Source of the DNA: Candidatus Woesebacteria bacterium
GTDB taxonomy: Bacteria > Patescibacteriota > Microgenomatia > UBA8517
DNA length: 33,509 bases
Direction of reading: 5' to 3'
NCBI GenBank assembly: GCA_016432365.1
Contig: CP066686.1
Location: forward strand, 757,992 to 791,500
Shown here: positions 2,724 to 33,509 of the stretch, piece by piece
Numbering within the stretch: position 1 is the stretch's first letter
How the letters are laid out: each line of letters opens with the position of its first letter
The notes under the pieces: model-generated
Databases searched by the model: none
The model's input: the letters and a program-made list of their open reading frames with translations, nothing else
Told to the model about the DNA's origin: nothing
Translations under genes and position numbers: made by a program

Positions 2724-3167
2724 ATGACTGAAAACAGTAATGATCTGACACAATTTGCCCAAGAAAATTGGATGCTTAGCTCCCATGACAAAGCACAGAA
2801 AATTTTGTCACACCCAGATCCTTTGTCGGCAATGTTTGCAATTCAGTTAGATATCGGTACTACTGGGTTACCGAGGCCAGATAGGTTCAGAATTCTGGGG
2901 GGCCCTGAACTCGCAGCTGCAGTTTCGATGTCCTCAAGAGAAGACCAGTATGAAACTATTATGTTCGCCGCTAAACAAGCAGTTGATCAAATTAAGGCTT
3001 TAATGCCTACAGAAAGTGCCGAAAAGTTATTAGTTGATAAGGAACATTATTTAGATATTTATAGCGCGTTCGAATTCGCCGTCAAGGCAAGATACAAAGA
3101 AGAGGCGTGGACCAACATATTGGGTGATGGGGAATTACGAAGCGTATTTGAAAAGCACGCCAGGTGA
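2724..3167 (+). CDS. Hypothetical protein (no recognisable domain)
   Basis: It is a 147-aa ORF (GTG 2721 or ATG 2724) with protein-like composition. I recognise no family signature. Confidence 0.45.
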   Translation: MTENSNDLTQFAQENWMLSSHDKAQKILSHPDPLSAMFAIQLDIGTTGLPRPDRFRILGGPELAAAVSMSSREDQYETIMFAAKQAVDQIKALMPTESAEKLLVDKEHYLDIYSAFEFAVKARYKEEAWTNILGDGELRSVFEKHAR

Positions 3168-3380
3168 ATTGACACACTGTTACCTAAAGAATTTAATTTA
3201 CTTCCAGAAAAAATCATAACAGCTATTCTATTTAGGTTTATTTTGGGGTATATTATAATAAGAAATAGGCAATAAAATGAAAAACGATTCCATCCACTTA
3301 CACAAAAGGCATAACAACTCACTCGAAAGCTTATTGTACTTGGCCATACCAATCTTAGTTTTTGTTGCAGTAATCTTAAT

Positions 3381-3887
3381 ATGGTTAAACAAATAATATT
3401 GCCGCTTGTAGCAGTAATGGTTTTTATTGCCTTAGTTGGTTTTTACTATAAAAAATCATCTGATCCCGTTTCACCAGCTGCTTCTCCGCAAGCTTCGGCC
3501 GGAGTTACAAAAAAAACATTAATGATAGGGGATAGAATAATTCCGGTAGAGGTTGTTTCCACTCCCGAACTTCGCGCCAAGGGACTTTCGGGACGGACTT
3601 CTCTTGATCAAAATTCGGGAATGCTGTTTACATTTGAATCCCAAAATACCACACCAAATTTTTGGATGAAAGACATGAAAATCGCTATCGACATTATTTG
3701 GATCAATGACGGCAAAATTGTAAAAATTGATAAGAACGTAAAGCCCCAGGCTGAAGGAACTGGTGATTCAAAACTGCAAGTTTACAATCCCGGTCAACCA
3801 ATAGATTTTGTATTAGAAGTAAACGCCAATTATTCGATTAATAACAGTATTCTGGTTGGAGACACGGTTGATCTCTCCAAAATTTAG
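3381..3887 (+). CDS. DUF192 domain-containing protein with an N-terminal TM anchor
   Basis: The stretch ELRAKGLSGRTSLDQNSGMLFTF...FWMKDMKIAIDIIWINDGKIVKI...PIDFVLEVNA matches the DUF192 (COG1430) pattern. Confidence 0.8.
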   Translation: MVKQIILPLVAVMVFIALVGFYYKKSSDPVSPAASPQASAGVTKKTLMIGDRIIPVEVVSTPELRAKGLSGRTSLDQNSGMLFTFESQNTTPNFWMKDMKIAIDIIWINDGKIVKIDKNVKPQAEGTGDSKLQVYNPGQPIDFVLEVNANYSINNSILVGDTVDLSKI

Positions 3888-3914
3888 GCCTCTTCCAAAG
3901 AACCCACCCCATAG

Positions 3915-5105
3915 TTGATTTCTTTATACATTAAAAGATATAATTCCGGGGTGAAAGAAAACGAAAAGATATTTGAACAGGCGGGAAGATGGTCTGTACT
4001 GGGTGAATATAGGCCGATTCTTAGGGATTTTGCAGGTCTCAGCACCGCAGATTTTTCGTTGGAAAAAAATCAACATGCTTTGGAAGTATTGTTTGCCGAT
4101 TATCTTGCAAAACTAAGAAGCGAGGCCTCCCGTTCCGACAAGCAGAGTCTGTTATATTTACGACTTGCCCCGCTTTGCTCACCCGAGATTTTCCAGGACA
4201 AAAAGTACGGAATAAAAGAAAATTTGAATTTTTTGGATAGTCCTATACAAAAAATTGACGACCCTCTTTACGTGATTGCCCGTGAGGTCCAAAGAATGGC
4301 TCCCGGTTCACTAAAACTACTTAGCGTTCCTGAATATTTTTTTAAACCTGAGGAAAAATTCCCAAATCTTATACCTACAATTCTCGAGTACACTTTCCGT
4401 ACACGCTCTTTGCCCAACCCCGTTGCAATGCGTATACCGGCACTTCTCAGATACGATCCCACTGCCCCACATTTTATACAATCTAATTTACCTTTGGTGC
4501 AAAGAATTGCAGAAGTGTTAAAAAGTGTGGAGGAAAATGTAAGTGTTGACATAAAACACTTACCCAGATATGCCGGTAAAGATAACGAATTGATTGTGAT
4601 GCATGCTGAAGCACCTGTTCTGGATTGGCCGGCACTTTTCCCCGGAGCAAGAATTACAACCCCAATCGTTGCGGCTTTTTCAGAAACCCCCCAACTTCCC
4701 ATGGATGATTCCCAATTTGAATCGATTACAATTTCGTCGGGTGAAGTTACCAAAAGTTGGCAGGGATCAACCCGGGGTACGCTTTTTAAAAGAATTATCC
4801 CCATACCGGAAGCAGTAGAATGGTGGTCATTTCAAAACACCGTTAATCAAATAACTAATGTGGTAACGGAAAGATCCGTAAGGAACTCTGCAGAACTTGC
4901 TACGGATATTCTTTCATTAGAGGGGATTAGAGTAGAAAGAGAAGAGCGAAGTGCCACATTTGCGGTTCATGCACCAATTTTGATTATGGCGGCCTATGCG
5001 CAAACCGTTGTGCAGGGTGTTAGACAAGGGTTAGCTCTGAGAGAATCTAATCAAATTGCAAACGATAAAGTGATAAGGGAACAGCGAGAAAGATCTTGGG
5101 CATAG
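3915..5105 (+). CDS. Hypothetical protein, 396 aa, ORFan
   Basis: It is a long open frame with a TTG start (an alternative GTG lies at 3951). I recognise no domain. A long antisense shadow ORF (4268..4804) is consistent with locally higher GC. Confidence 0.5.
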   Translation: MISLYIKRYNSGVKENEKIFEQAGRWSVLGEYRPILRDFAGLSTADFSLEKNQHALEVLFADYLAKLRSEASRSDKQSLLYLRLAPLCSPEIFQDKKYGIKENLNFLDSPIQKIDDPLYVIAREVQRMAPGSLKLLSVPEYFFKPEEKFPNLIPTILEYTFRTRSLPNPVAMRIPALLRYDPTAPHFIQSNLPLVQRIAEVLKSVEENVSVDIKHLPRYAGKDNELIVMHAEAPVLDWPALFPGARITTPIVAAFSETPQLPMDDSQFESITISSGEVTKSWQGSTRGTLFKRIIPIPEAVEWWSFQNTVNQITNVVTERSVRNSAELATDILSLEGIRVEREERSATFAVHAPILIMAAYAQTVVQGVRQGLALRESNQIANDKVIREQRERSWA

Positions 5106-20389: not shown

Positions 20390-21484
20390 ATGTCGATAGA
20401 AATACAACTAAACATAACACAACCAAACATTAGAAAAGCTCAAATACAAGATTCTGGGAATCTGGCATCTTTGGCAAAGAAAGCCTTTGAAGGATATCCA
20501 TTCGAGTATGTATTCTCGGAAGATGGCACAAAAGAAGCAATCGCCAGAGGTGAGCAAAGGTGGGTAATCTTAAACGAAAACAATCAAATTACAGGTTGTG
20601 CCGTGCTTGGTTTAAGTGATTCCAGAATGGCCGAAGTAATGCGCGTCATGATTGACCCATCTTTACGAAAAAATGGAGCGGCAACATATTTAACAAAAAA
20701 GCTATCATTAGAAGCTATCAGTGAGGAGAAATATGCGTGGGCTGACGTTCGAGGGGATCAAATCGGAATGCAACGTGCAGGAATGGGAGCCAGCATGAAG
20801 GCAATTTCACTCGAGCAGGGAAAACATGTTGTTTATAATCACAAAGATTCAGAAGGAAGAGAACTAGGACCTGCAAGGGAAACCATGGTACACATGACCA
20901 CACTTCCGGTCAACGAACTAGACCTCAAAAATGAGATTGCAAAACTTCCCAACACAATACGTGAACAACTTGCAAACAACCTAAAAAGCTCGTTAAACCC
21001 AACACCAAAGGATCAATCACTAAGCGCTGCTAAATTACCAAATGCCAAGACGACAAAGGAACGAGTTTTAAATAGCATTAATTACAATTCCGAAAAGATT
21101 GGTTCAATCGTCTCAGTTAACAATGATATCAAAAAAATCGAAACAGCCGGAATAAATACGGTTGTTGTTTTGCCGGACGCGTCCGCATTCATTTTGAACG
21201 GCGGTTATTTAGATGAAACAGTAAATTTGTTGACAGCTGTTGGTATACAGGTGGCAACTTACTATTGTGATTTAAATGATGAAAAAATGCAGCAAAAAGC
21301 AATAGACGCCGGAATGGAGGCTGCCTCAATTCGCCCATGGGTAAATGAAAAAACTGGACAAGTTGTTTGGCAAATAGCTTGGAGAAAAACCGCAAACGAT
21401 TACAAAGATTGTTTGCATACAATATCGCTTGACCCACTTGTGGAAAGACAAATTATGAAAATAATTAATGTTATTGAAAAATAA
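20390..21484 (+). CDS. GNAT-like acetyltransferase domain protein with an unassigned C-terminal half
   Basis: The N-terminal ~150 aa carry a GNAT motif A-like MIDPSLRKNGAATYLTKKL. Residues ~180-364 are unrecognised. Confidence 0.45.
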   Translation: MSIEIQLNITQPNIRKAQIQDSGNLASLAKKAFEGYPFEYVFSEDGTKEAIARGEQRWVILNENNQITGCAVLGLSDSRMAEVMRVMIDPSLRKNGAATYLTKKLSLEAISEEKYAWADVRGDQIGMQRAGMGASMKAISLEQGKHVVYNHKDSEGRELGPARETMVHMTTLPVNELDLKNEIAKLPNTIREQLANNLKSSLNPTPKDQSLSAAKLPNAKTTKERVLNSINYNSEKIGSIVSVNNDIKKIETAGINTVVVLPDASAFILNGGYLDETVNLLTAVGIQVATYYCDLNDEKMQQKAIDAGMEAASIRPWVNEKTGQVVWQIAWRKTANDYKDCLHTISLDPLVERQIMKIINVIEK

Positions 21485-21523
21485 ACACTATACGACTGCT
21501 AAAATTGATTTAAAATAACATAT

Positions 21524-22600
21524 ATGGAAAATAAAATTTTAGAATTATCAAAAAAGCTGATATCAGTTCCTTCCGTAAAAGGTGAAACGAAGGAATTGAA
21601 CCGTGTATTGGAAACTGCCAAAAAGGAACTTAAAGGGCATTTTTATAAAGAATATGAAAGCAACGAGGTTCCCAGTATTATTTTTTATAATACTAAAACT
21701 TTGCCCAAAAAATTTAAGTTGATTCTCGACGCGCATTTGGATGTTGTTCCGGGAAATTCCGAACAGTATAAGCCAAAAGTTGTTGGAGATAAGCTTTACG
21801 GACGTGGCGCTTACGACATGAAAGCTGCAGGGGCAGCCGAAATCTTGCTATATAAAGACCTTGCCAAAAAAGTTGATTACCCGTTGGGGCTTCAACTTGT
21901 AACCGACGAAGAAATAGGCGGTTTTAACGGGGCTAAATATCAATTCAAAAAAGGAATCGATGCGGACTGTATTGTTGTGGGTGAATGCTCAAGCGATTTT
22001 ACCGTCAGTGTTGCCTCTAAGGGTGTTCTTTGGTTAAAGATAGATTTTACAGGTGTTGCTTCCCATGCGGCTTATTTATGGGAAGGTAAAAACCCGATTT
22101 ACGAAATGAATCAATTTTTAAACAGACTTTGGAAAATTTATCCAATCCCAACTAAAAAGGTTTGGGAAACAACTGTTAATGTTTCTATAGTTGGCACTAC
22201 AAATGAAACAGGCAACAAAGTTCCGGGCGACGCAAGTGTCCGGCTTGACGCCCGATATATCCCAGGCGAAGGAGAAAAGACTTTAAAGAAAATTAAATCT
22301 TTGCTTCCAAAAAATGCCAAGGTGGAAATATTGGAATTTGAACCGGCAATGAATACGCCGGAATCCGATCCGTACGTTCAGAGTTTTATTAAAACTTCGG
22401 AAATAGCGCTTGGAAAGAAAATTGAAGTTGTTGGAAAAAATGGAGCGTCGGACTTAAGACACTATCCGAAAACAGCGGGGATTGAATTTGGACCAATTGG
22501 AGCGGGTCCACACACCGATAATGAATGGGTTAGTATCAAAAGCCTCAATGTTTATTATAAAATATTGGAATCCTACGTTTTATCACTAAACAGAAAATAA
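21524..22600 (+). CDS. M20 family metallopeptidase (ArgE/DapE-like deacylase)
   Basis: LDAHLDVVPG, YGRGAYDMKAAGAA and VTDEEIGG are the metal-ligand motifs of the M20 family. Confidence 0.8.
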   Translation: MENKILELSKKLISVPSVKGETKELNRVLETAKKELKGHFYKEYESNEVPSIIFYNTKTLPKKFKLILDAHLDVVPGNSEQYKPKVVGDKLYGRGAYDMKAAGAAEILLYKDLAKKVDYPLGLQLVTDEEIGGFNGAKYQFKKGIDADCIVVGECSSDFTVSVASKGVLWLKIDFTGVASHAAYLWEGKNPIYEMNQFLNRLWKIYPIPTKKVWETTVNVSIVGTTNETGNKVPGDASVRLDARYIPGEGEKTLKKIKSLLPKNAKVEILEFEPAMNTPESDPYVQSFIKTSEIALGKKIEVVGKNGASDLRHYPKTAGIEFGPIGAGPHTDNEWVSIKSLNVYYKILESYVLSLNRK

Positions 22601-22603
22601 TAT

Positions 22604-24400
22604 ATGCAAACCAAACAAATCTATTACGAAGATGAATACAAAAAGACTCTCGAGGCAAAAGTTATATCTATCGAAAAATACGACTCGATGGCCAACATTA
22701 TTTTGGATCAAACTATATTTTATCCTGAAGGGGGAGGGCAACCTTCTGATCAAGGTGTAATTAGAGGAAAAAGTGGAAGCCTTGAAGTCCAACAAACCAT
22801 AATTAAGAACGGAGAGGTTGTGCATATTGGAAGGTTAGTCGGTAACTTGGTAGAAAACGAGGTGGTTGAATGTAACATTGACTGGGATCGCAGATATAAA
22901 AACATGCGTACCCATTCTGCAGGACACATTGTAAATGATGCTGTACAAACATTATTCCCAGCGCTGATTCCAGTTGAAGCGGAACACGGTAAAAAATCTT
23001 TTATTAAATATCAAGGTAACCTTAGTCAAATTTCTTCAACAATCATCTTGGAAAAAGCCAATGAAATTATAAATGAAAATTTGCCGATAAAAACTGAGTT
23101 TGTATCCTTTGACGAACTCAAAAAAAGAGCTACATGGATTCCTGAAAATCTACCAAAAAGTAAACCATTAAGAATAATGCAAATTGGGAATTACTCAATA
23201 ATTCCGGATGGTGGAACACAGGTTAAAAAAACTGGTGAAATTATTAGAATTTCTGAAATAAATGTTACAAACAAAGATATTTATGTTTATATTCATTACA
23301 AAATAGAGTCGATTCCAGAACATCCGGAGGTCGAAAATAAAAATCTTGATTCCAATATCAGTTATTCGTCTTACAACTCGAATGATATCATCAATACAAA
23401 AAATCAGGCCATAGCGCAAATTTCCGGTGCCAAAGATAACGAAGAGCTTGAACAAATAAGAATAGATTTATTTGGCAGAAACGGAAAAATAACAAATATT
23501 CTTAAGGGCATTAAAAATGTTCCGCAAGACCAAAGACAACAAATAGGTATTTTGATCAACGAAACAAAAAAAACCCTTGAGGGTATGCTCCTGGATCAGA
23601 AAAACAGTTTTAAAGAGAATGCCCGCGAATGGTTTGACCCTACAATCCCTGGAATTAAAAAGGAAGTAGGGCATGCACACCTCGTTACTCAAGCTATTAA
23701 TCAAATCCAGTCGGTTTTTGAACGAATAGGTTTCAGACGCGCCCGCTACCCCGAGGTTGAATGGGACTGGTTTGCTTTTGAAGCACTAAATATGCCAAAG
23801 GGGCACCCCGCACGCGATGAATGGGAAACTTTTTTTGTCAACAATCCCGAAAATTCCAGATTTGGAAAAATGGTTTTAACACCACACACCTCAAGCGGTC
23901 AAGTTCGCGAAATGCAAAGGTTAAAAGTACCGCCAATCCGTATGATTAATATTGCCAAATGTTATCGGAGGCAATCAGATATATCTCACGTCCAAATGTT
24001 CCATCAATTTGAAGGCATGGTTATTGATGAAAATATTTCTATCGTTAATCTCAAAGGAACGTTAGATTATTTTGCACAAACATTCTTTGGCTCAACGCGA
24101 AAAACCAGGCTTCGTCCGTACCATTTTCAATTTACCGAACCATCTTTTGAGATTGATATCAGTTGCGGTATTTGCAACGGCGTCGGTTGTAAAGTCTGCA
24201 AGGCCGGTTGGTTGGAAATGGGAGGAGCCGGAATGGTGCACCCCAATGTATTAAAAGCCGGAGGAGTTAATCCAAAAAAATATTCTGGTTTTGCTTTTGG
24301 TTGGGGAGTGGAAAGGGTACTGATGATGCAAAGTGGGCTGGCGATTCCGGATGTAAGAATGATTTACAGTCCCGATCTGCGTTTTCTTACTCAGTTTTAG
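22604..24400 (+). CDS. pheS: Phenylalanine--tRNA ligase alpha subunit fused to an N-terminal AlaX-like (COG2872-type) domain
   Basis: Residues 1-235 read YYEDEYKKTLEAKV...DQTIFYPEGGGQPSDQG...IDWDRRYKNMRTHSAGHIV...PDGGTQVKKTGEI. Residues ~262-598 are canonical PheS (FRPYHFQFTEPSFEID, GFAFGWGVERVLMM). Confidence 0.9.
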   Translation: MQTKQIYYEDEYKKTLEAKVISIEKYDSMANIILDQTIFYPEGGGQPSDQGVIRGKSGSLEVQQTIIKNGEVVHIGRLVGNLVENEVVECNIDWDRRYKNMRTHSAGHIVNDAVQTLFPALIPVEAEHGKKSFIKYQGNLSQISSTIILEKANEIINENLPIKTEFVSFDELKKRATWIPENLPKSKPLRIMQIGNYSIIPDGGTQVKKTGEIIRISEINVTNKDIYVYIHYKIESIPEHPEVENKNLDSNISYSSYNSNDIINTKNQAIAQISGAKDNEELEQIRIDLFGRNGKITNILKGIKNVPQDQRQQIGILINETKKTLEGMLLDQKNSFKENAREWFDPTIPGIKKEVGHAHLVTQAINQIQSVFERIGFRRARYPEVEWDWFAFEALNMPKGHPARDEWETFFVNNPENSRFGKMVLTPHTSSGQVREMQRLKVPPIRMINIAKCYRRQSDISHVQMFHQFEGMVIDENISIVNLKGTLDYFAQTFFGSTRKTRLRPYHFQFTEPSFEIDISCGICNGVGCKVCKAGWLEMGGAGMVHPNVLKAGGVNPKKYSGFAFGWGVERVLMMQSGLAIPDVRMIYSPDLRFLTQF

Positions 24401-24437
24401 TTTCGGATTTAGATATTCGAATTTCGAATTTAATCAA

Positions 24438-26390
24438 ATGGATATTAAAATATTAGACAGTTGGCTTAGAGAATATTTAGATACATTGGCGACCCCTAAA
24501 CAAATCGCTGAGTATTTATCCTTGTGTGGTCCTTCCGTGGAAAGAATTAATAAGATTGGAAACGATTCATTGTATGAAATTGAAGTAACCACAAACAGAA
24601 TTGATTCAGCCTCCGTTTATGGAATCGCTCGAGAAGCATTGGCAATCTTACCGAGATTTAAAGTGCCAGCCAAACTTGAAAGAATTAAAACTGAGTCCGC
24701 TTCCTATTCTTTTGTTAAAAAGGTTCCATATCTTACAGCTATCGTTGACCCAAATCTTTGCCCACGTTTCACTGCAGTATTAATTAAAAATGTGAACATA
24801 GATCACTCACCCGACTGGATGGTTAAAAGACTTGAAGCTTGCGGAGTTCGCGCAATCAACAACGTAGTAGACATCAGTAATTACATAATGCTTGGATTGG
24901 GTCAGCCTGTACATACTTTTGATTACGACAAGATCGAGGGTTCAAAAATGATTCTTAGGGAAAGCAAAAGGGGAGAAAAAATTACAACACTTGACGCCAA
25001 AGTGTTTGATTTGACCGGAGGAGATATTGTAATTGAAGATGGCGGAGGGCGACTAATCGATTTGGCCGGAGTTATGGGCGGAGCGCTTTCTATGGTAGAC
25101 GACAACACCAAGAACGTTCTCCTGTTTGTCCAAACATATGATCCTACCAGAATCCGCAAAACCTCAATGGGACTGGCTCAAAGAACCCAGGCCGCTGCAA
25201 TATTTGAAAAGGGAATAGATACCGAACTTGTTTCTCCGGCTATCTTAACTGCAATTGACTTATTTAAAACAATCTGCAAAGGAAATCCCGAAAAGGAAAT
25301 CTTAAATGTCTACCCCAAAGCTTACAAACCCATAAAAATTTTAATTGACAATGAACTTATTATTAAAAAACTCGGTATCGAAGTTTCCAAGAAAGACATC
25401 TCCACATATCTCGGTTCATTGGAATTTGAATCCGTTTGGCACGGAAACAAATTGGAAGTAGTCGTACCCAGTTTCAGAACAAAAGATGTCTTAGGCGAGG
25501 AAGATGTTGTTGAAGAAATTGCCAGAATTTATGGCTACCACAATCTCCCAAGCCAGATAATGTCAGGGGTCATTCCAAATGAACCTCCCCAATCGGATTT
25601 TGCTTTTGAAACCAATATCAAAAATGTATTGGTCGGTCTTGGCGGAAACGAAATCTACACTCTTTCTCTTGTTCCGAAAGAATTTGTTGGCGAAAAAGCG
25701 TTAGGACTTAAAAACCCTCTGGGAGTAGACAGTGAATTTCTCAGAACTTCACTTATGCCCTCGCTTCTGAGCGCCGCCAAAACAAATATCGGTACTTTTG
25801 AAAATTTTCATTTGTTCGAAATGTCTAACGTCTACATTCCACGAAAGAATGATTTGCCGGAGGAGAGAATGACATTGGCGGGTATTTTGTACGGACATAG
25901 TTATAGAAATTCAAAAGGAGTTATCGAAGCTCTTTTATCTAAATTAAACATCAATGCTAAATTTACAGCTGAGGACATAAATGGATTTTCTGCCAGTCAT
26001 TCTGTAACGATAAAAGTTGACGGAAATGATATCGGATTTATGGGTATTACAAACGACAAATTAATATATTACGAGTTTTCAGTTTCTAAATTGATGTCAT
26101 CTATCAAACCACTAAAATTCCAAGAAATTCCCAAATACCCGGCACAAATCGAAGATATAACTTTTACACTGCCGGATAAAACTTTAATCGGCGACGTCAT
26201 TAATGAAATTTACAAAGTACAATCTACAATTTACAAAGTCGAACTTAAGGATACTTATAATGATGCTTGTACTTTCAGAGTTGAATACTTGGACCCAAAC
26301 AAAACTTTAACGAATGCGGATGTCGAAATTACCCGCAAAGAAATTATTGCTTCGGTCAAAAATAAATTCGGCGGAAACATTAAGGAGTAG
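24438..26390 (+). CDS. pheT: Phenylalanine--tRNA ligase beta subunit (short form without the B2 OB-fold tRNA-binding domain)
   Basis: The B1 start (MDIKILDSWLREYL) runs directly into EVTTNRIDSASVYGIARE. The B3/4 region (NNVVDISNYIMLGLGQPVHTFD), B5 and the FDX-ACB-like C-terminus are present. The protein is 650 aa. Confidence 0.9.
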   Translation: MDIKILDSWLREYLDTLATPKQIAEYLSLCGPSVERINKIGNDSLYEIEVTTNRIDSASVYGIAREALAILPRFKVPAKLERIKTESASYSFVKKVPYLTAIVDPNLCPRFTAVLIKNVNIDHSPDWMVKRLEACGVRAINNVVDISNYIMLGLGQPVHTFDYDKIEGSKMILRESKRGEKITTLDAKVFDLTGGDIVIEDGGGRLIDLAGVMGGALSMVDDNTKNVLLFVQTYDPTRIRKTSMGLAQRTQAAAIFEKGIDTELVSPAILTAIDLFKTICKGNPEKEILNVYPKAYKPIKILIDNELIIKKLGIEVSKKDISTYLGSLEFESVWHGNKLEVVVPSFRTKDVLGEEDVVEEIARIYGYHNLPSQIMSGVIPNEPPQSDFAFETNIKNVLVGLGGNEIYTLSLVPKEFVGEKALGLKNPLGVDSEFLRTSLMPSLLSAAKTNIGTFENFHLFEMSNVYIPRKNDLPEERMTLAGILYGHSYRNSKGVIEALLSKLNINAKFTAEDINGFSASHSVTIKVDGNDIGFMGITNDKLIYYEFSVSKLMSSIKPLKFQEIPKYPAQIEDITFTLPDKTLIGDVINEIYKVQSTIYKVELKDTYNDACTFRVEYLDPNKTLTNADVEITRKEIIASVKNKFGGNIKE

Positions 26391-30468: not shown

Positions 30469-30540
30469 GGCGCGTCCGCCTAAGTGGTAGGGCACCGGTC
30501 TGTAAAATCGGGATAACGGGTTCAACTCCCGTACGCGCCA
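30469..30540 (+). tRNA. tRNA-Tyr (anticodon GTA) with a short (4-nt) variable region
   Basis: The acceptor is GGCGCGT/ACGCGCC and the D-arm is GCCT-AAGTGGTA-GGGC. The anticodon stem CCGGT/ATCGG carries loop CTGTAAA. The variable region is GATA, the T-arm is ACGGG-TTCAACT-CCCGT and the discriminator is A. A TTGACT/TACACT promoter-like pair lies at 30377-30405. Confidence 0.8.
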
Positions 30541-30554
30541 CGTTTAACTTAATT

Positions 30555-30634: not shown

Positions 30635-30663
30635 TTGACAAAGATGCGGCCTGGTCGTATATT
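30635..30663 (+). promoter_or_regulatory. Sigma70-like promoter of the T-box operon
   Basis: TTGACA lies at 30635-30640 and TATATT at 30658-30663 with an exact 17-nt spacer. Confidence 0.6.
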
Positions 30664-30680
30664 CTACAACAGTAGCAAAA

Positions 30681-30949
30681 GCTGTGAAGCAGCGAAGTAG
30701 TTAGTTTAGGCGGAAGAATAGAGACGAGGCGGTCGGTGCAAGACCTCGCAAGCTCAAATTAACGAATTACCCTGCAGAGCCGGTTAGACGAAATCTAACA
30801 CGAGAGCGCCCGTAAAAGCGCAAAGAAAGTGTCATCCTGAGCACAGTTGAAGGAAGGAGCTTTCGAAAGAGTATAAAGCGAGGTGGTACCGCCTTTTAAA
30901 GGCCCTTGCCTAGTTCTGATTTTTATCGGAACTATGCAAGGGCTTTTTT
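30681..30949 (+). promoter_or_regulatory. T-box riboswitch leader (Stem I, antiterminator and terminator)
   Basis: - K-turn: 30681-88 with 30776-80 (GC stem, UGU bulge, tandem GA/AG).
- S-turn: AGUA 30696-99 with GAA 30764-66.
- AG bulge AGAGA at 30720-24; distal loop GGUGCAA at 30735-41.
- T-box: GCGAGG-UGGUACC-GCC at 30878-93, closed by GGC-CCUUGC at 30901-09.
- Terminator: GCCCUUGC (30902-09) with GCAAGGGC (30936-43), then U6 (30944-49). Confidence 0.85.
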
Positions 30950-30962
30950 GTATCTAAAAAAA

Positions 30963-33329
30963 ATGAAAGAAACTATTAATCAAAAAGTAGAATCAATACA
31001 CGAAGAGGTGAGACGACGTGATATAGAAAAATTTACTCGCACTATGGTCAGCCTCGTAGCAAAAGTGAATGTTTTCGGTAGCGATGAAAATGATGAATTT
31101 AAGGTGGTTAGGGAAAATGGTTTAACCCAAGGCATATTCAAGACTTGGGCAGTACCTGTTATCCCATTTTTAGAAAGCGGAAGTATTGAAGAATTAGCGT
31201 CAAGTCTAACAAAAGGTGGGCCGTTTTGGGAAAGGCTGGACAACCGACAGTTAAATATTATTACAGACTGGTCAAAAGAACTGTCCTCAAAACCATTAAA
31301 ATTATGGCAAAGCCTTGAAAAATGGAGAGGTTTTGCTGAAACATACGACAGGAGACTGCAATTAATTTTTTCCGAAAGAGAATTACCCACTCAAAAAGAT
31401 GAACGTGCTGCCGAACTTATCCTACGCTTGATAACAGCCTTTGGGTTCGCATCACCTTTTTACCACATTGAAGCAATGGTGGGTGACACACAAAATACAA
31501 GATTGAACCCCATCTCAGCTACTAAAAATAATACTGAAAGGAGTGGGGGTGGTTTGGATTTAGTAGCTATGTCGTTGCCTTCCGCTCTTAAAAACAAGGT
31601 CGTCGCAAAAAAACTTGACTGGTCCGGCTTAAATTGGGAAAAAATAGACAATCGATCAAAAATTGATTCCAAAGATAAGGAATCTATCTTAACCTTTAGA
31701 ATAGCCAAAATTTTGGGTGTAGATATAGGCGATGTTATCTTCGCGGCTAACGCACTCCAATGGATACCTGTAAGTGTGGGGGGCAAGGCAGAAGACTTGC
31801 CACATGATGATGCTCGAATTCTAGTCGAAAATTCACTTAAACCTAATAAAAATACCAACACTGAAACTGTTGGCCGAAACATGAATGCACTTATTAGATT
31901 TTTGAATTGGTTCCCGTTGGTCAAAAATAGTAAAAATTTTTCTGGTAAAGAGTGGAGATACGCTGCAGCATGTGACACATCAGATACTCTGTTGGCAGAA
32001 GTCAACGCAGGAGGAGTCTTGTCCAAATCTTTTGAATTAACGTTTAAACAAGATCTAGCAACACAAGTTAAACAATTGGACGCAACTTCTGCTAAAGGAA
32101 GATTTCTGATCCAACTTTTAAACGATGGAAAACTAAACACAGAAATTTACCAGGAAGTTAAAGCGAGATCGCCAGAATTTTTTAAAGATGTTTCGTCTAA
32201 ACTGGCTGCGCTCGAAAAAAGTGAGGCGGTCCTGGATGTTAACCAAGCAAAACCAAGGCATCTTGTGGGTGGAAAGTCCGCAGGTCTCCGCGAAGCAGGC
32301 TTAATTTTTGGAAAAGAGAATGTTATTCCCGGAATAGTTATTACATCCGAAACTGTAGAAAACTGGCTTAAAACATTACCCAATATATGGACAGAAATAC
32401 AAAATATTAATTCAGCAAAAAATATTTCAGAAAAATTAACCATAGCACATAAAATTTCTGAACTTCTCAGAAAAACTGAGTTTCCTATAAATAATTTCCT
32501 AGATAGCTCTTCATTTTTTAGATCAAGGCTTGCAGTGAGATCTTCATCGTTTGATGAAGACACTGATTACAATGGTTCAGCTGCAGGAATTTACGAAAGT
32601 GAAGTTAACATAGACCCTGCAGAAGTTAAAAGCGCAATCTCACGTGTAATCTCATCATTTTTTTCCGACAAAGCGATAAGTTACAGACATATGCAAGGTT
32701 TGAGCGACATCCCAATGTTTGCAGTAGTTATAAGTCCTTTTGTCGAAGGTCGTGGGGGTGCAGCATTTTCTTCTGGAGATAATAATGGTTGGGAAATCGT
32801 TACAGCGGATAAACCTTCAGATGTGGTTGGGTCGTCATCAGAAAAATTTGATTCATACAAAAAAATTGGTCAGTCAGTTAACAAGGTTAACAACCATGGG
32901 TGGGTAAAAGATTCTCAAGTAAATAAAATTGGCGAGATGTTAATTAAAGCTGAAAAAATAATTGGTGGTCGAGTTGATATGGAGTTTGCGATCGACTCAA
33001 ATGACAAAGTCTGGGTGCTTCAACTCCGAACCATAAAAGAAGAGATGGCGAAAATAGACCATCAAAAGCATAAGCCGCTTTTTGCTCTAAAACTAAACAA
33101 ATTGGAAGATTTAGAAAAAACTGTAGTTGATGCAAACAAAAATATTAAATTAATTATCGGAGAAAATATTAATATTGATCAATTTCAGGGAACGTTATTT
33201 AGATGGTTGACCATAAACCACAACCACGTGGGTCAAATATCGTTGTCTCAAAGAATACCCAGAACCAGTCATTTTGCAAATCTTTGTATTAACCTGGGTA
33301 TTGATTTATTATTTGAAGAACATGGATAA
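30963..33329 (+). CDS. PEP-utilizing/dikinase-like protein: unassigned ~430-aa N-terminal region, PPDK_N ATP-grasp, and swivel phospho-His domain
   Basis: ATG 30963 is preferred because the tracked TTG 30906 lies inside the T-box terminator. The ATP-grasp carries LVGGKSAGL (nt 32262-32288), VRSSSFDEDTDYNGSAAGIYES and DMEFAIDSNDKVWVLQLRTI. The C-terminus PRTSHFANLCINLGIDLLF matches the PEP-utilizer mobile domain, with the His codon at 33270-33272. Confidence 0.8.
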   Translation: MKETINQKVESIHEEVRRRDIEKFTRTMVSLVAKVNVFGSDENDEFKVVRENGLTQGIFKTWAVPVIPFLESGSIEELASSLTKGGPFWERLDNRQLNIITDWSKELSSKPLKLWQSLEKWRGFAETYDRRLQLIFSERELPTQKDERAAELILRLITAFGFASPFYHIEAMVGDTQNTRLNPISATKNNTERSGGGLDLVAMSLPSALKNKVVAKKLDWSGLNWEKIDNRSKIDSKDKESILTFRIAKILGVDIGDVIFAANALQWIPVSVGGKAEDLPHDDARILVENSLKPNKNTNTETVGRNMNALIRFLNWFPLVKNSKNFSGKEWRYAAACDTSDTLLAEVNAGGVLSKSFELTFKQDLATQVKQLDATSAKGRFLIQLLNDGKLNTEIYQEVKARSPEFFKDVSSKLAALEKSEAVLDVNQAKPRHLVGGKSAGLREAGLIFGKENVIPGIVITSETVENWLKTLPNIWTEIQNINSAKNISEKLTIAHKISELLRKTEFPINNFLDSSSFFRSRLAVRSSSFDEDTDYNGSAAGIYESEVNIDPAEVKSAISRVISSFFSDKAISYRHMQGLSDIPMFAVVISPFVEGRGGAAFSSGDNNGWEIVTADKPSDVVGSSSEKFDSYKKIGQSVNKVNNHGWVKDSQVNKIGEMLIKAEKIIGGRVDMEFAIDSNDKVWVLQLRTIKEEMAKIDHQKHKPLFALKLNKLEDLEKTVVDANKNIKLIIGENINIDQFQGTLFRWLTINHNHVGQISLSQRIPRTSHFANLCINLGIDLLFEEHG

Positions 33330-33509
33330 CAGACGACAATCGCTCCTAAGTCAAATGAAAAAAGATGCTATCAAATTAGATTGGGACGTGGCCTTTCAAG
33401 GAAAAGCTAATGGCAACCGACATCTTTTTCGTGTAAATAAAATTATTAGATATCTAGTTACAAAAGAGGGGGGTGACCCATTTATAGCACAATCTGGGGG
33501 CTGGATTCA
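33322..33509 (+). CDS. HD-domain phosphohydrolase-like protein; the 3' end runs off the window
   Basis: It is absent from the ORF track. ATG 33322 overlaps the upstream stop (ATGGATAA). The translation MDNRRQSLLSQMKKDAIKLDWDVAFQGKANGNRHLFRVNKIIRYLVTKEGGDPFIAQSGGWI shows the H...RV...(D)...HD-type N-terminal pattern. Confidence 0.55.
   Translation, partial: MDNRRQSLLSQMKKDAIKLDWDVAFQGKANGNRHLFRVNKIIRYLVTKEGGDPFIAQSGGWI

Follow-up and report, generated by a model that had tools for sequence, protein, structure and literature searches.

What could a dikinase-like protein do whose N-terminal half resembles no known family, and why should its synthesis respond to the charging of a tRNA? This question is raised by a stretch of 33,509 nucleotides from a Candidatus Woesebacteria bacterium (contig CP066686.1 of assembly GCA_016432365.1, positions 757,992 to 791,500; hereafter the window), near the end of which an open reading frame (ORF) for a dikinase-like protein is preceded by a T-box leader and followed by the gene of an HD-domain phosphohydrolase. 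An earlier reading of the letters alone (the original prediction) had seen here a phosphotransfer/phosphohydrolase pair under T-box control. Our analysis supports this overall reading, since the novelty of the N-terminal domain, the conservation of the predicted phospho-histidine and the synteny of the gene pair all speak in its favour. We further consider it probable, with moderate confidence, that the two genes encode a histidine-mediated phosphotransferase of the dikinase type and a phosphohydrolase, which are induced by uncharged tRNA-Tyr and serve the supply of tyrosine.

Bacteria that belong to the candidate phyla radiation (CPR, or Patescibacteria) are regarded as host-dependent and devoid of amino-acid biosynthesis, and little is known of how they obtain each amino acid. 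An enzyme pair that is conserved within this lineage and apparently tied to the charging of one tRNA offers a concrete entry point to their acquisition of tyrosine. New are the presumed substrate domain, the partner phosphatase, which is obligatory yet interchangeable, and the probable control by tyrosine tRNA; our search of the literature found a description neither of this dikinase family nor of T-boxes in CPR bacteria.

A known catalytic core joined to a new, presumed substrate domain

The gene and the domains of its product are laid out as follows.

30963-33329, plus strand: dikinase-like ORF with an ATG start, 788 amino acids, stop codon at 33327-33329
30963-32237, plus strand: all-alpha N-terminal domain (residues 1-425), presumed to be the domain of the second substrate; from AlphaFold2 and a profile search
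32250-33062, plus strand: nucleotide-binding ATP-grasp domain of the PPDK_N type (residues ~430-700); from PF01326, Foldseek and invariant residues
33075-33329, plus strand: putative minimal phospho-histidine carrier ('swivel') domain (residues ~705-788), with the codon of His770 at 33270-33272

The ATG at 30963 was taken as the start because a longer ORF, opening with TTG at 30906, would begin inside the terminator of the T-box. The catalytic core is of a known kind. PF01326 (PPDK_N) is the only Pfam family matched in the protein, at residues 433-609 and in a second stretch (97.4 bits against a cut-off of 27, E 1.3e-27). The key residues of the ATP-grasp motifs that had been picked out by eye, namely K438 of GGK, R526 of VRSSS, E532 of DED, E674 of DMEF and Q687 of LQLR, are invariant in all 48 aligned homologues, and the original prediction was right on this point. 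The AlphaFold2 model of the full-length protein (pLDDT 89, pTM 0.91) finds its structural matches through the ATP-grasp only: rifampicin phosphotransferase (RPH; 5hv1, E 3e-11), phosphoenolpyruvate (PEP) synthase (2ols), the Rhodococcus dikinase subunit HpeI (9goj) and pyruvate phosphate dikinase (PPDK; 1kbl), with RPH and HpeI as the best Foldseek matches. Matches to NCBIfam models likewise stay within the ATP-grasp and are all below threshold. The best are to two PEP synthase models (58 bits with a cut-off of 598, and 54 bits with one of 740); the prodigiosin ligase PigC and rifamycin phosphotransferase NF041857 (31.6 bits against 999) are also among them. Because the chain ends at residue 788, 18 residues past His770, the PEP/pyruvate TIM barrel is absent, as had been predicted.

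The N-terminal domain, when modelled alone, is predicted with pLDDT 92.2 and pTM 0.90. A Foldseek comparison of this model with the PDB gave no fold match (best E 0.64, TM-score 0.15 or lower; 5hv1 not matched), and the 425 residues have no match in Pfam or NCBIfam. The claim that the first ~430 residues are unrecognisable thus holds for characterised families both by sequence and by fold. Of the 95 positions at which conservation reaches at least 90%, 64 fall in this domain, which is acidic (median isoelectric point (pI) 5.05, net charge -13); its conserved residues include D44-E45-F46, K60, W62, R155, Y167, K275, R312 and R380. It is a confidently predicted and strongly conserved fold without a solved relative, which would widen the substrate range of the His-mediated dikinase class.

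The family is rare. A profile of the N-terminal domain found just 96 representatives among 1.84 billion cluster representatives; fragments aside, the matches are 650-910 residues long, and the ten most distant full-length ones that were tested share the same architecture. A word-indexed search of 5.8 billion proteins returned 84 relatives of the dikinase, most of ~780 residues and none informatively named, with PF01326 as the sole Pfam family on all of them. Genome and metagenome collections were scanned for dikinase loci and yielded 41 distinct ones (identified below, where necessary, by handles such as L001). Those with an organism name come mostly from CPR bacteria, namely Woesebacteria, Collierbacteria, Roizmanbacteria, Gracilibacteria and Saccharibacteria. 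Four bins (L004, L007, L011 and L012) bear the titles 'uncultured Gammaproteobacteria' or 'Pseudomonadales', which look wrong, as the genes around the dikinase match those of the CPR loci. All contigs on which the family was encountered are of CPR type.

We regard the C-terminal ~85 residues as a cut-down phospho-histidine carrier because His770 (motif RTSHFAN) is invariant in 48 of 48 aligned homologues, because hhalign places SQRIPRTSHFANLCINLGIDLL in register with the His421 motif of Escherichia coli PpsA (P 4.7e-4), and because ~529 columns of the full model align with PPDK in Foldseek. The residue at -2 from the histidine is conserved as T or S among the homologues. In the AlphaFold2 model the carrier is a beta-alpha-beta-alpha-beta-alpha-beta unit, with His770 at the N-terminus of helix 770-778.

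The enzymes RPH, HpeHI, CreHI and phenylphosphate synthase PpsAB share with this protein the PPDK_N ATP-grasp, a phospho-His carrier near the C-terminus and a separate, mostly helical substrate domain (both presumed here), and the lack of a barrel. The architecture had been likened to that of 'X, water dikinases' such as RPH. As far as the closest folds are concerned (RPH, PEP synthase, HpeI and PPDK) the comparison is apt, but it fails for the order of the domains, which is substrate, ATP-grasp, His here and ATP-grasp, substrate, His in RPH. Nor does the N-terminal domain bear any fold likeness to the rifampin-binding domain of RPH. The protein also departs from the RPH class in its His motif, RT(S/C/G)HFAN, which lacks the GG loop and has a Thr like that of PEP synthase, and in its constant association with a phosphatase and its probable control by tRNA-Tyr. 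With PEP synthase and PPDK it shares the ATP-grasp residues, the T-S/C-H motif and the presumed His-mediated transfer of a beta-phosphate, but it differs from them in having no TIM barrel, in a carrier cut to ~85 residues and unrecognised by PF00391, and in the extra 425-residue N-terminal domain.

A partner with a constant role and a variable fold

The last gene of the window is cut by its end.

33322-33509, plus strand: 5' part of the HD-domain phosphohydrolase gene, whose ATG overlaps the dikinase stop codon and which runs past the window end

The overlap (ATG at 33322, dikinase stop at 33327-33329) reads ATGGATAA. The full gene could be read on L001, an identical public contig of 8.4 kb, where it encodes 249 amino acids from 33322, or 238 from the contig's called start; the overlapping start agrees with the N-termini of homologues. 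Start and stop overlap in L003, L005, L006, L012, L016 and L034 as well. The protein matches PF01966 (26.2 bits against a cut-off of 22), and its metal ligands H23, H52-D53, H96, H111-D112 and D114 are invariant in 15 homologues. It is most like HD phosphohydrolases of the YpgQ/YedJ type, four structures of which (3b57, 2pjq, 5dqv and 3gw7) are matched by its profile at E 1e-16 to 1e-11 and which share the invariant H...HD...H...HD...D ligands. From these it differs in an additional conserved C-terminal region of ~100 residues and in its obligatory pairing with the dikinase.

Wherever at least 750 nt are available downstream of the dikinase gene (31 distinct loci), the next gene encodes a phosphohydrolase. 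The two-gene module that had been suggested from the overlap is thereby confirmed. The expectation of an HD partner in relatives was borne out in 22 of the 31 loci, whereas nine carry a member of another family: PP2C/SpoIIE-type in seven, His_Phos_1 in one and a metallo-beta-lactamase (MBL) fold in one. Four unrelated families at one fixed position indicate non-orthologous displacement. It is a clean case that fixes the role of the partner, in that the selected trait is the hydrolysis of phosphate esters and not the HD fold as such.

A T-box leader most likely specific for tyrosine

T-boxes normally control aminoacyl-tRNA synthetases, biosynthetic genes and transporters, and one in front of a dikinase-phosphatase pair would broaden the known type of regulon. 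The leader of the window comprises the following elements.

30635-30663, plus strand: sigma-70-like promoter TTGACA-17-TATATT, matching the consensus at 11 of 12 positions (311-339 of L001), also read in the window
30675-30953, plus strand: T-box leader, by Rfam RF00230 and our own Stem I model
30676-30783, plus strand: Stem I, by our own Stem I covariance model (84.5 bits)
30764-30771, plus strand: 3' side of the specifier loop, GAAUUACC, with UAC at 30768-30770
30884-30887, plus strand: T-box bulge UGGU, from the RF00230 alignment
30898-30947, plus strand: terminator hairpin followed by a T-run (-33 kcal/mol, z -9)

The promoter was called by consensus match only. The RF00230 model aligns over its full length (positions 1-219) with 30675-30910 at 82 bits (E 2.4e-17), which lies under the gathering score of 93; the homologous leaders reach 83-91 bits, and that of L003 100.6 bits. 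The 5' arm of the terminator overlaps the antiterminator. A regular-expression search for the canonical box GGTGGTACCGCG found only the window locus (L001) and an unrelated site in L013, and it was replaced by Rfam E-value scans and the Stem I model. With the latter, a T-box was located 250-550 nt upstream of the dikinase gene in 33 loci, which amount to 24 distinct sequences; a T-box Stem I precedes the gene in 23 of 39 distinct loci. The 24 leaders show clear covariation, with 92% of the Stem I cells paired and compensatory changes in 21 of 23 pairs (slid controls reach at most 45%); pairing in the closing helix of the specifier loop amounts to 99%. The T-box before the dikinase gene, on which the proposed response to tRNA charging would depend, thus holds across relatives, the tRNA being most likely tRNA-Tyr.

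In 21 of the 24 distinct leaders the 3' side of the specifier loop reads (G/C)AA(U/A)U followed by ACC or ACA, and it therefore presents UAC in the standard '+0' frame (codon, one nucleotide, helix). This arrangement has been solved for the Bacillus subtilis tyrS T-box (PMC2879506), and according to TBDB the '+0' frame is preferred and the '+1' frame least preferred (PMC7778990). The UGGU bulge complements A73 of the adjacent tRNA-Tyr. The most likely specificity of the T-box is tyrosine (UAC). The leaders alone would also admit threonine, but the tyrosine-run leaders in loci that have no T-box, the tyrosyl-tRNA synthetase (TyrRS) genes and the adjoining tRNA-Tyr genes described below decide in favour of tyrosine. 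A leucine specifier (UUA) was rejected, as L031 and L052 read GAAAUACC.

The likeness to the B. subtilis tyrS T-box extends to the AGAGA and distal-loop motifs of Stem I, the loop-E GAA, the UAC specifier and the UGGN bulge (PMC2879506), and to the mutually exclusive antiterminator and terminator. In contrast to tyrS, the T-box described here occurs in CPR bacteria and controls the dikinase-phosphatase pair first, with TyrRS behind it or not at all; it also has one extra nucleotide between GAA and UAC and usually a C instead of a purine 3' of the codon.

Some leaders deserve separate mention. Those of L003 (4010-4116), L005 (3474-3580) and L006 (7620-7726) carry an extra A in the specifier loop (GAAUUAACC), so that the standard frame reads AAC (Asn); it is in the operon of these loci that the TyrRS paralogue is degenerate or missing. 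L008, L060 and L061 gave no T-box with Rfam, nor did L013 ahead of its dikinase gene. The latter locus does hold a weak T-box match (3234-3531, 28 bits) with a perfect AGGTGGTACCGCG box, which lies ~4.5 kb upstream of the dikinase gene before an unrelated small ORF.

Tyrosine leader peptides

The loci without a T-box provide a tyrosine signal of a different kind.

L008 7772-7858, L010 4502-4576, L011 1480-1533, L047 6779-6847 and L060 4913-4990: mini-ORFs with tyrosine runs before the dikinase gene

Directly upstream of the dikinase gene, five of the 14 T-box-less loci carry a mini-ORF with YYY to YYYYYY (for example MKVINGKNTYYYYLLFREGGYYVP and ..NSYYYYYYDL..), where 0.04 would be expected and none of 300 resamples reached the observed count. 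Judged from the leaders, one dikinase gene is served by two different putative tRNA-Tyr-sensing devices across lineages.

Tyrosine-rich leaders are also present further downstream, before genes for a pyridoxal phosphate (PLP)-dependent decarboxylase, an M20 enzyme and TyrRS.

L001 3748-3894 (~240-390 nt past the window end): putative tyrosine leader attenuator before the PLP-decarboxylase/M20/TyrRS genes
L016 10047-10260, L002 11850-12015, L003 8618-8765, L005 7720-7850 and L012 10945-11054: the same attenuator
L017, L025, L026 and L027: the same attenuator

Between the HD gene and the decarboxylase gene of L001 there are a second promoter match, a 14-codon ORF (MLNSEYYYLSKDNA) and a strong terminator, the stem of which begins at the stop codon of that ORF. 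This layout of promoter, mini-ORF and terminator recurs in 10 of 12 loci, with two to four Tyr codons and the stop codon 0-8 nt from the stem (further examples are MTTGYYYYFSPSF and MINSYYYFIGSI). A conserved antiterminator was sought in the decarboxylase-gene leaders, and none was found. Masking a ribosome footprint at the stop codon abolishes the terminator, whereas the terminator survives when a ribosome is stalled at the Tyr codons. From this geometry one would expect read-through in the presence of ample Tyr-tRNA, in contrast to the behaviour of a T-box. If this is true, the dikinase pair would be a function of starvation and the decarboxylase operon one of surplus.

Short ORFs with runs of one type of codon, followed by an intrinsic terminator, are familiar from attenuators of the trpL, pheL, hisL and pyrBI type. 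Compared with trpL, pheL and hisL, the leaders described here are tyrosine-specific and occur in CPR bacteria, and those of the decarboxylase genes differ in that the stop codon comes within 0-8 nt of the terminator stem and that no antiterminator is evident. The tyrosine leader peptides would represent a new amino-acid attenuator, possibly opposite in sense to the classical ones.

A tyrosine gene neighbourhood

Upstream of the leader, the window contains a tRNA gene.

30469-30541, plus strand: tRNA-Tyr (GTA), 73 nt, by ARAGORN (Rfam tRNA 52.7 bits)

The tRNA has a short variable loop, a G1-C72 pair and the discriminator A73, and its CCA end is not encoded. A tRNA-Tyr gene adjoins the dikinase gene in seven loci (the window, L002, L016, L028, L044, L048 and L060), and a TyrRS gene is present in 16 of the 21 well-flanked loci. 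It stands directly behind the pair, after a T-box, in L017 and in L035/L037 (gaps of 9 and 29 nt); in L003 and L006 one gene or a gap of 55 nt intervenes. Altogether, 19 of the 21 well-flanked loci are linked to tyrosine by a T-box, TyrRS or tRNA-Tyr, and the other two (L008 and L010) have tyrosine-run leaders.

The tyrosine/TyrRS neighbourhood extends past the window end. On L001 the HD gene is followed by genes for a PLP-dependent group II decarboxylase, an M20 deacylase of the ArgE/DapE type, TyrRS and a GNAT-like protein. The TyrRS is bona fide (TIGR00234, 286 bits), and the decarboxylase is nearest to diaminobutyrate (DABA) decarboxylases and to MfnA Tyr/Asp decarboxylases. Even the most divergent dikinase subgroup has an HD gene, TyrRS and a PLP decarboxylase nearby. 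Further neighbours in the loci (prephenate dehydratase, a TrpR-related protein, a YddG-like exporter, and the ELFV dehydrogenase, kinase-dehydrogenase fusion and YbaK-like deacylase described below) fit an aromatic amino-acid theme.

A link between TyrRS and a group II PLP decarboxylase is also known from the tyrosine decarboxylase (TDC) cluster tyrS-tdcA-tyrP of Enterococcus, which produces tyramine and whose tyrS is reported to be under tyrosine-responsive leader control (PMC3315439). Unlike in that cluster, no Tyr/tyramine antiporter recurs in the dikinase loci, the decarboxylase is nearer to the MfnA and DABA enzymes, and that cluster contains nothing equivalent to the genes of the dikinase, the phosphatase and the M20 enzyme.

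Several observations on the tRNA genes may be added. Those that adjoin the loci are 71-74 nt long and lack a long variable arm, which is unusual for bacteria, and the loci also hold a 'group A' TyrRS. Sites are L002 5851-5921, L016 6120-6191, L028 2820-2893 and L060 5050-5178; the tRNA-Tyr of L060 has a 59-nt insert after GUA, at the usual intron position. The window copy is the only one that was read base by base, and its G1-C72 pair is bacterial.

Proposed role and alternative explanations

The mechanism that we propose is modelled on PEP synthase, RPH and the phenol kinases PpsAB and HpeHI. The ATP-grasp would bind ATP and load its beta-phosphate onto His770 of the small C-terminal carrier, for transfer to a hydroxyl on a second substrate, which the acidic all-alpha N-terminal domain would bind. 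The translationally coupled partner would later remove this phosphate or hydrolyse the phosphorylated product. Transcription would start at the sigma-70-like promoter and pass through the T-box leader; with the specifier read as UAC, the pair would therefore be made when tRNA-Tyr is uncharged. The module would thus be part of a CPR-specific tyrosine regulon together with TyrRS, tRNA-Tyr and the PLP decarboxylase/M20 operon under its tyrosine leader, and it most likely helps to secure tyrosine for TyrRS when tyrosine is limiting. The domain make-up, the conservation of the catalytic residues, the phosphohydrolase pairing and the association with T-boxes or tyrosine leaders are observed; from them we infer that phosphate is transferred through His770, in which direction the pathway runs and what the substrate may be. 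As to the substrate, we would venture, with low confidence and by analogy, that ATP-driven phosphorylation traps or protects tyrosine or a 4-hydroxyphenyl precursor, which the phosphatase then releases. The guess is attractive because PpsAB, CreHI and HpeHI phosphorylate phenolic substrates, and a scavenging role has been proposed for HpeHI (PMC12167813).

A number of observations weigh against this proposal. The swivel domain of the original prediction stands as far as the predicted histidine is concerned, but it is a minimal version of only ~85 residues in which Pfam does not detect PF00391 (E up to 1). A profile of the last 90 residues, searched against PDB sequences, returned no PEP-utiliser and only noise (internalin, kinesin), and the hhalign probability of the alignment with PpsA His421 is just 32%. 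The N-terminal domain showed no similarity in Foldseek to the substrate domain of known phenol kinases. On the side of the partner, the HD protein is similar to the YpgQ/YedJ proteins, among them a nucleotide pyrophosphohydrolase, and partners of the PP2C and His_Phos_1 families more typically act on proteins; moreover, unless a further step comes between them, the joint production of a kinase and a phosphatase would in principle be a futile cycle. As for the specifier, the nucleotide after UAC is in most leaders a C and not the usual purine, the leaders of L003, L005 and L006 read UAACC, and ACC or ACA (Thr in the '+1' frame) is kept in all 24.

A more far-reaching version of the proposal is possible but doubtful. 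The dikinase-phosphatase pair may, together with the PLP enzyme, the M20 deacylase and the acetyltransferase, form a new CPR route of tyrosine salvage or biosynthesis with two tRNA-Tyr sensors, the N-terminal domain being a new fold that recognises tyrosine or a 4-hydroxyphenyl group. Here the T-box or a classical tyrosine leader would turn the kinase pair on in starvation, and the compact tyrosine leader, with its stop codon abutting the terminator, would turn the decarboxylase operon on in plenty.

Among the alternatives, a protein kinase/phosphatase switch is unlikely, though it accounts for part of the data. The dikinase would then phosphorylate a protein, such as TyrRS, the PLP decarboxylase or, as in the regulation of PPDK and PEP synthase, itself at Thr768 near His770, and the partner would be the protein phosphatase that resets the switch. 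Seven partners are indeed of the PP2C/SpoIIE type and one belongs to His_Phos_1, the family of the phospho-His phosphatase SixA; the conserved T/S at -2 from the histidine is reminiscent of the regulatory Thr of PEP synthase and PPDK (PMC12167813), and the acidic N-terminal domain could dock a basic protein. However, HD proteins of the YpgQ/YedJ type account for 22 of the 31 partners and an MBL fold for one, neither being a typical protein phosphatase. The known members of the dikinase class all act on small molecules or glucans, and no candidate target follows the pair through all loci.

We give distinctly less credence to inducible resistance, in which the dikinase would phosphorylate and so inactivate a natural TyrRS inhibitor or a toxic tyrosine analogue, much as RPH inactivates rifampicin, with uncharged tRNA-Tyr triggering the T-box and, in some loci, a second, resistant TyrRS. 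T-box-controlled second copies of synthetases are a known theme in resistance, and in several genomes there are two or three paralogues of TyrRS, of which one belongs to the T-box operon and one lies elsewhere; RPH, moreover, is the closest structural relative of the ATP-grasp. Yet an inactivating kinase needs no phosphatase, and one is found in all 31 loci. Many loci have a single TyrRS or none nearby, and the neighbours (prephenate dehydratase, an amino-acid dehydrogenase, a peptidase) indicate amino-acid supply. PADLOC gave no match, although its library is limited to phage defence, and phage defence itself was rejected on this result.

It is very unlikely that the T-box senses another tRNA, either tRNA-Thr (through ACC or ACA flush with the helix) or tRNA-Leu (through UUA after GAA), and that the tyrosine link is a coincidence of neighbourhood. 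The threonine codon does have the merit of being present in 24 of 24 distinct leaders, even in the three with UAACC; its C/A variation looks like a synonymous third position, and threonyl-tRNA synthetase (ThrRS) genes are nearby in the window and in several loci. The leucine codon is broken in L031 and L052 (GAAAUACC). Against threonine stand its '+1' frame, the least preferred in TBDB (PMC7778990), and the position of ThrRS upstream of the T-box and not behind it, where TyrRS is found in many loci. The Tyr-codon runs of the T-box-less relatives are an independent tyrosine signal.

Slightly less probable still is an RNA end-healing pair, consisting of a 5'-kinase and a 2',3'/3'-phosphoesterase for the processing or repair of tRNA-Tyr. 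RNA-repair systems also use interchangeable phosphoesterase families, HD included, and tRNA-Tyr adjoins the gene in seven loci, one of them with the 59-nt insert after the anticodon. However, the loci share no recurrent gene for a ligase or endonuclease, dikinases are not known to act on RNA, and the response of a T-box needs intact tRNA. Binding of tRNA by the N-terminal domain is itself unlikely in view of its acidity (pI 5.05, net charge -13). Finally, an ordinary PEP synthase (pyruvate, water dikinase), the label that automatic annotation would give on account of the best NCBIfam matches, can practically be dismissed, since these scores are far under the cut-offs and confined to the ATP-grasp, and the TIM barrel is absent.

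Further observations on the loci

Several genomes have two or three TyrRS paralogues near the locus. One TyrRS group, located inside the T-box operon, has degenerate catalytic motifs, with HIGH changed to HIGR, KMSKS to KMSSS and the equivalent of the tyrosine-binding Tyr34 to Lys; judged from these motifs, it may be inactive or have a new function.

L003 7394-8617 and L006 11873-13096: degenerate TyrRS paralogues, compared with L001 6701-7966 and L003 2741-3958
L002 16001-17173: TyrRS with HLGN

In five loci a gene of ~500 codons, encoding a fusion of an HprK-like P-loop kinase with a dehydrogenase similar to lactate and malate dehydrogenases (LDH/MDH), diverges from the T-box.

L002 5991-7505, L004 2510-4027, L012 6093-7535, L017 5263-6714 and L028 ~2956-4341, all minus strand: kinase-dehydrogenase fusion

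In L004 an ELFV amino-acid dehydrogenase gene lies between the HD gene and TyrRS, and in L010 the HD gene is followed by that of a YbaK-like aminoacyl-tRNA deacylase.

The window as a whole is rich in translation genes (BipA, ThrRS, IF3, PheST, SerRS and five tRNAs). A GNAT-like gene and a gene for a second M20 peptidase directly precede pheS-pheT.

20390-22600 and 22604-26390: this gene group (GNAT-like, M20, pheS-pheT)

The second M20 peptidase is 29% identical to the M20 protein near TyrRS. An N-terminal stretch of the PheS encoded in the window matches the C-terminal end of the model of class II alanyl-tRNA synthetase (AlaRS).

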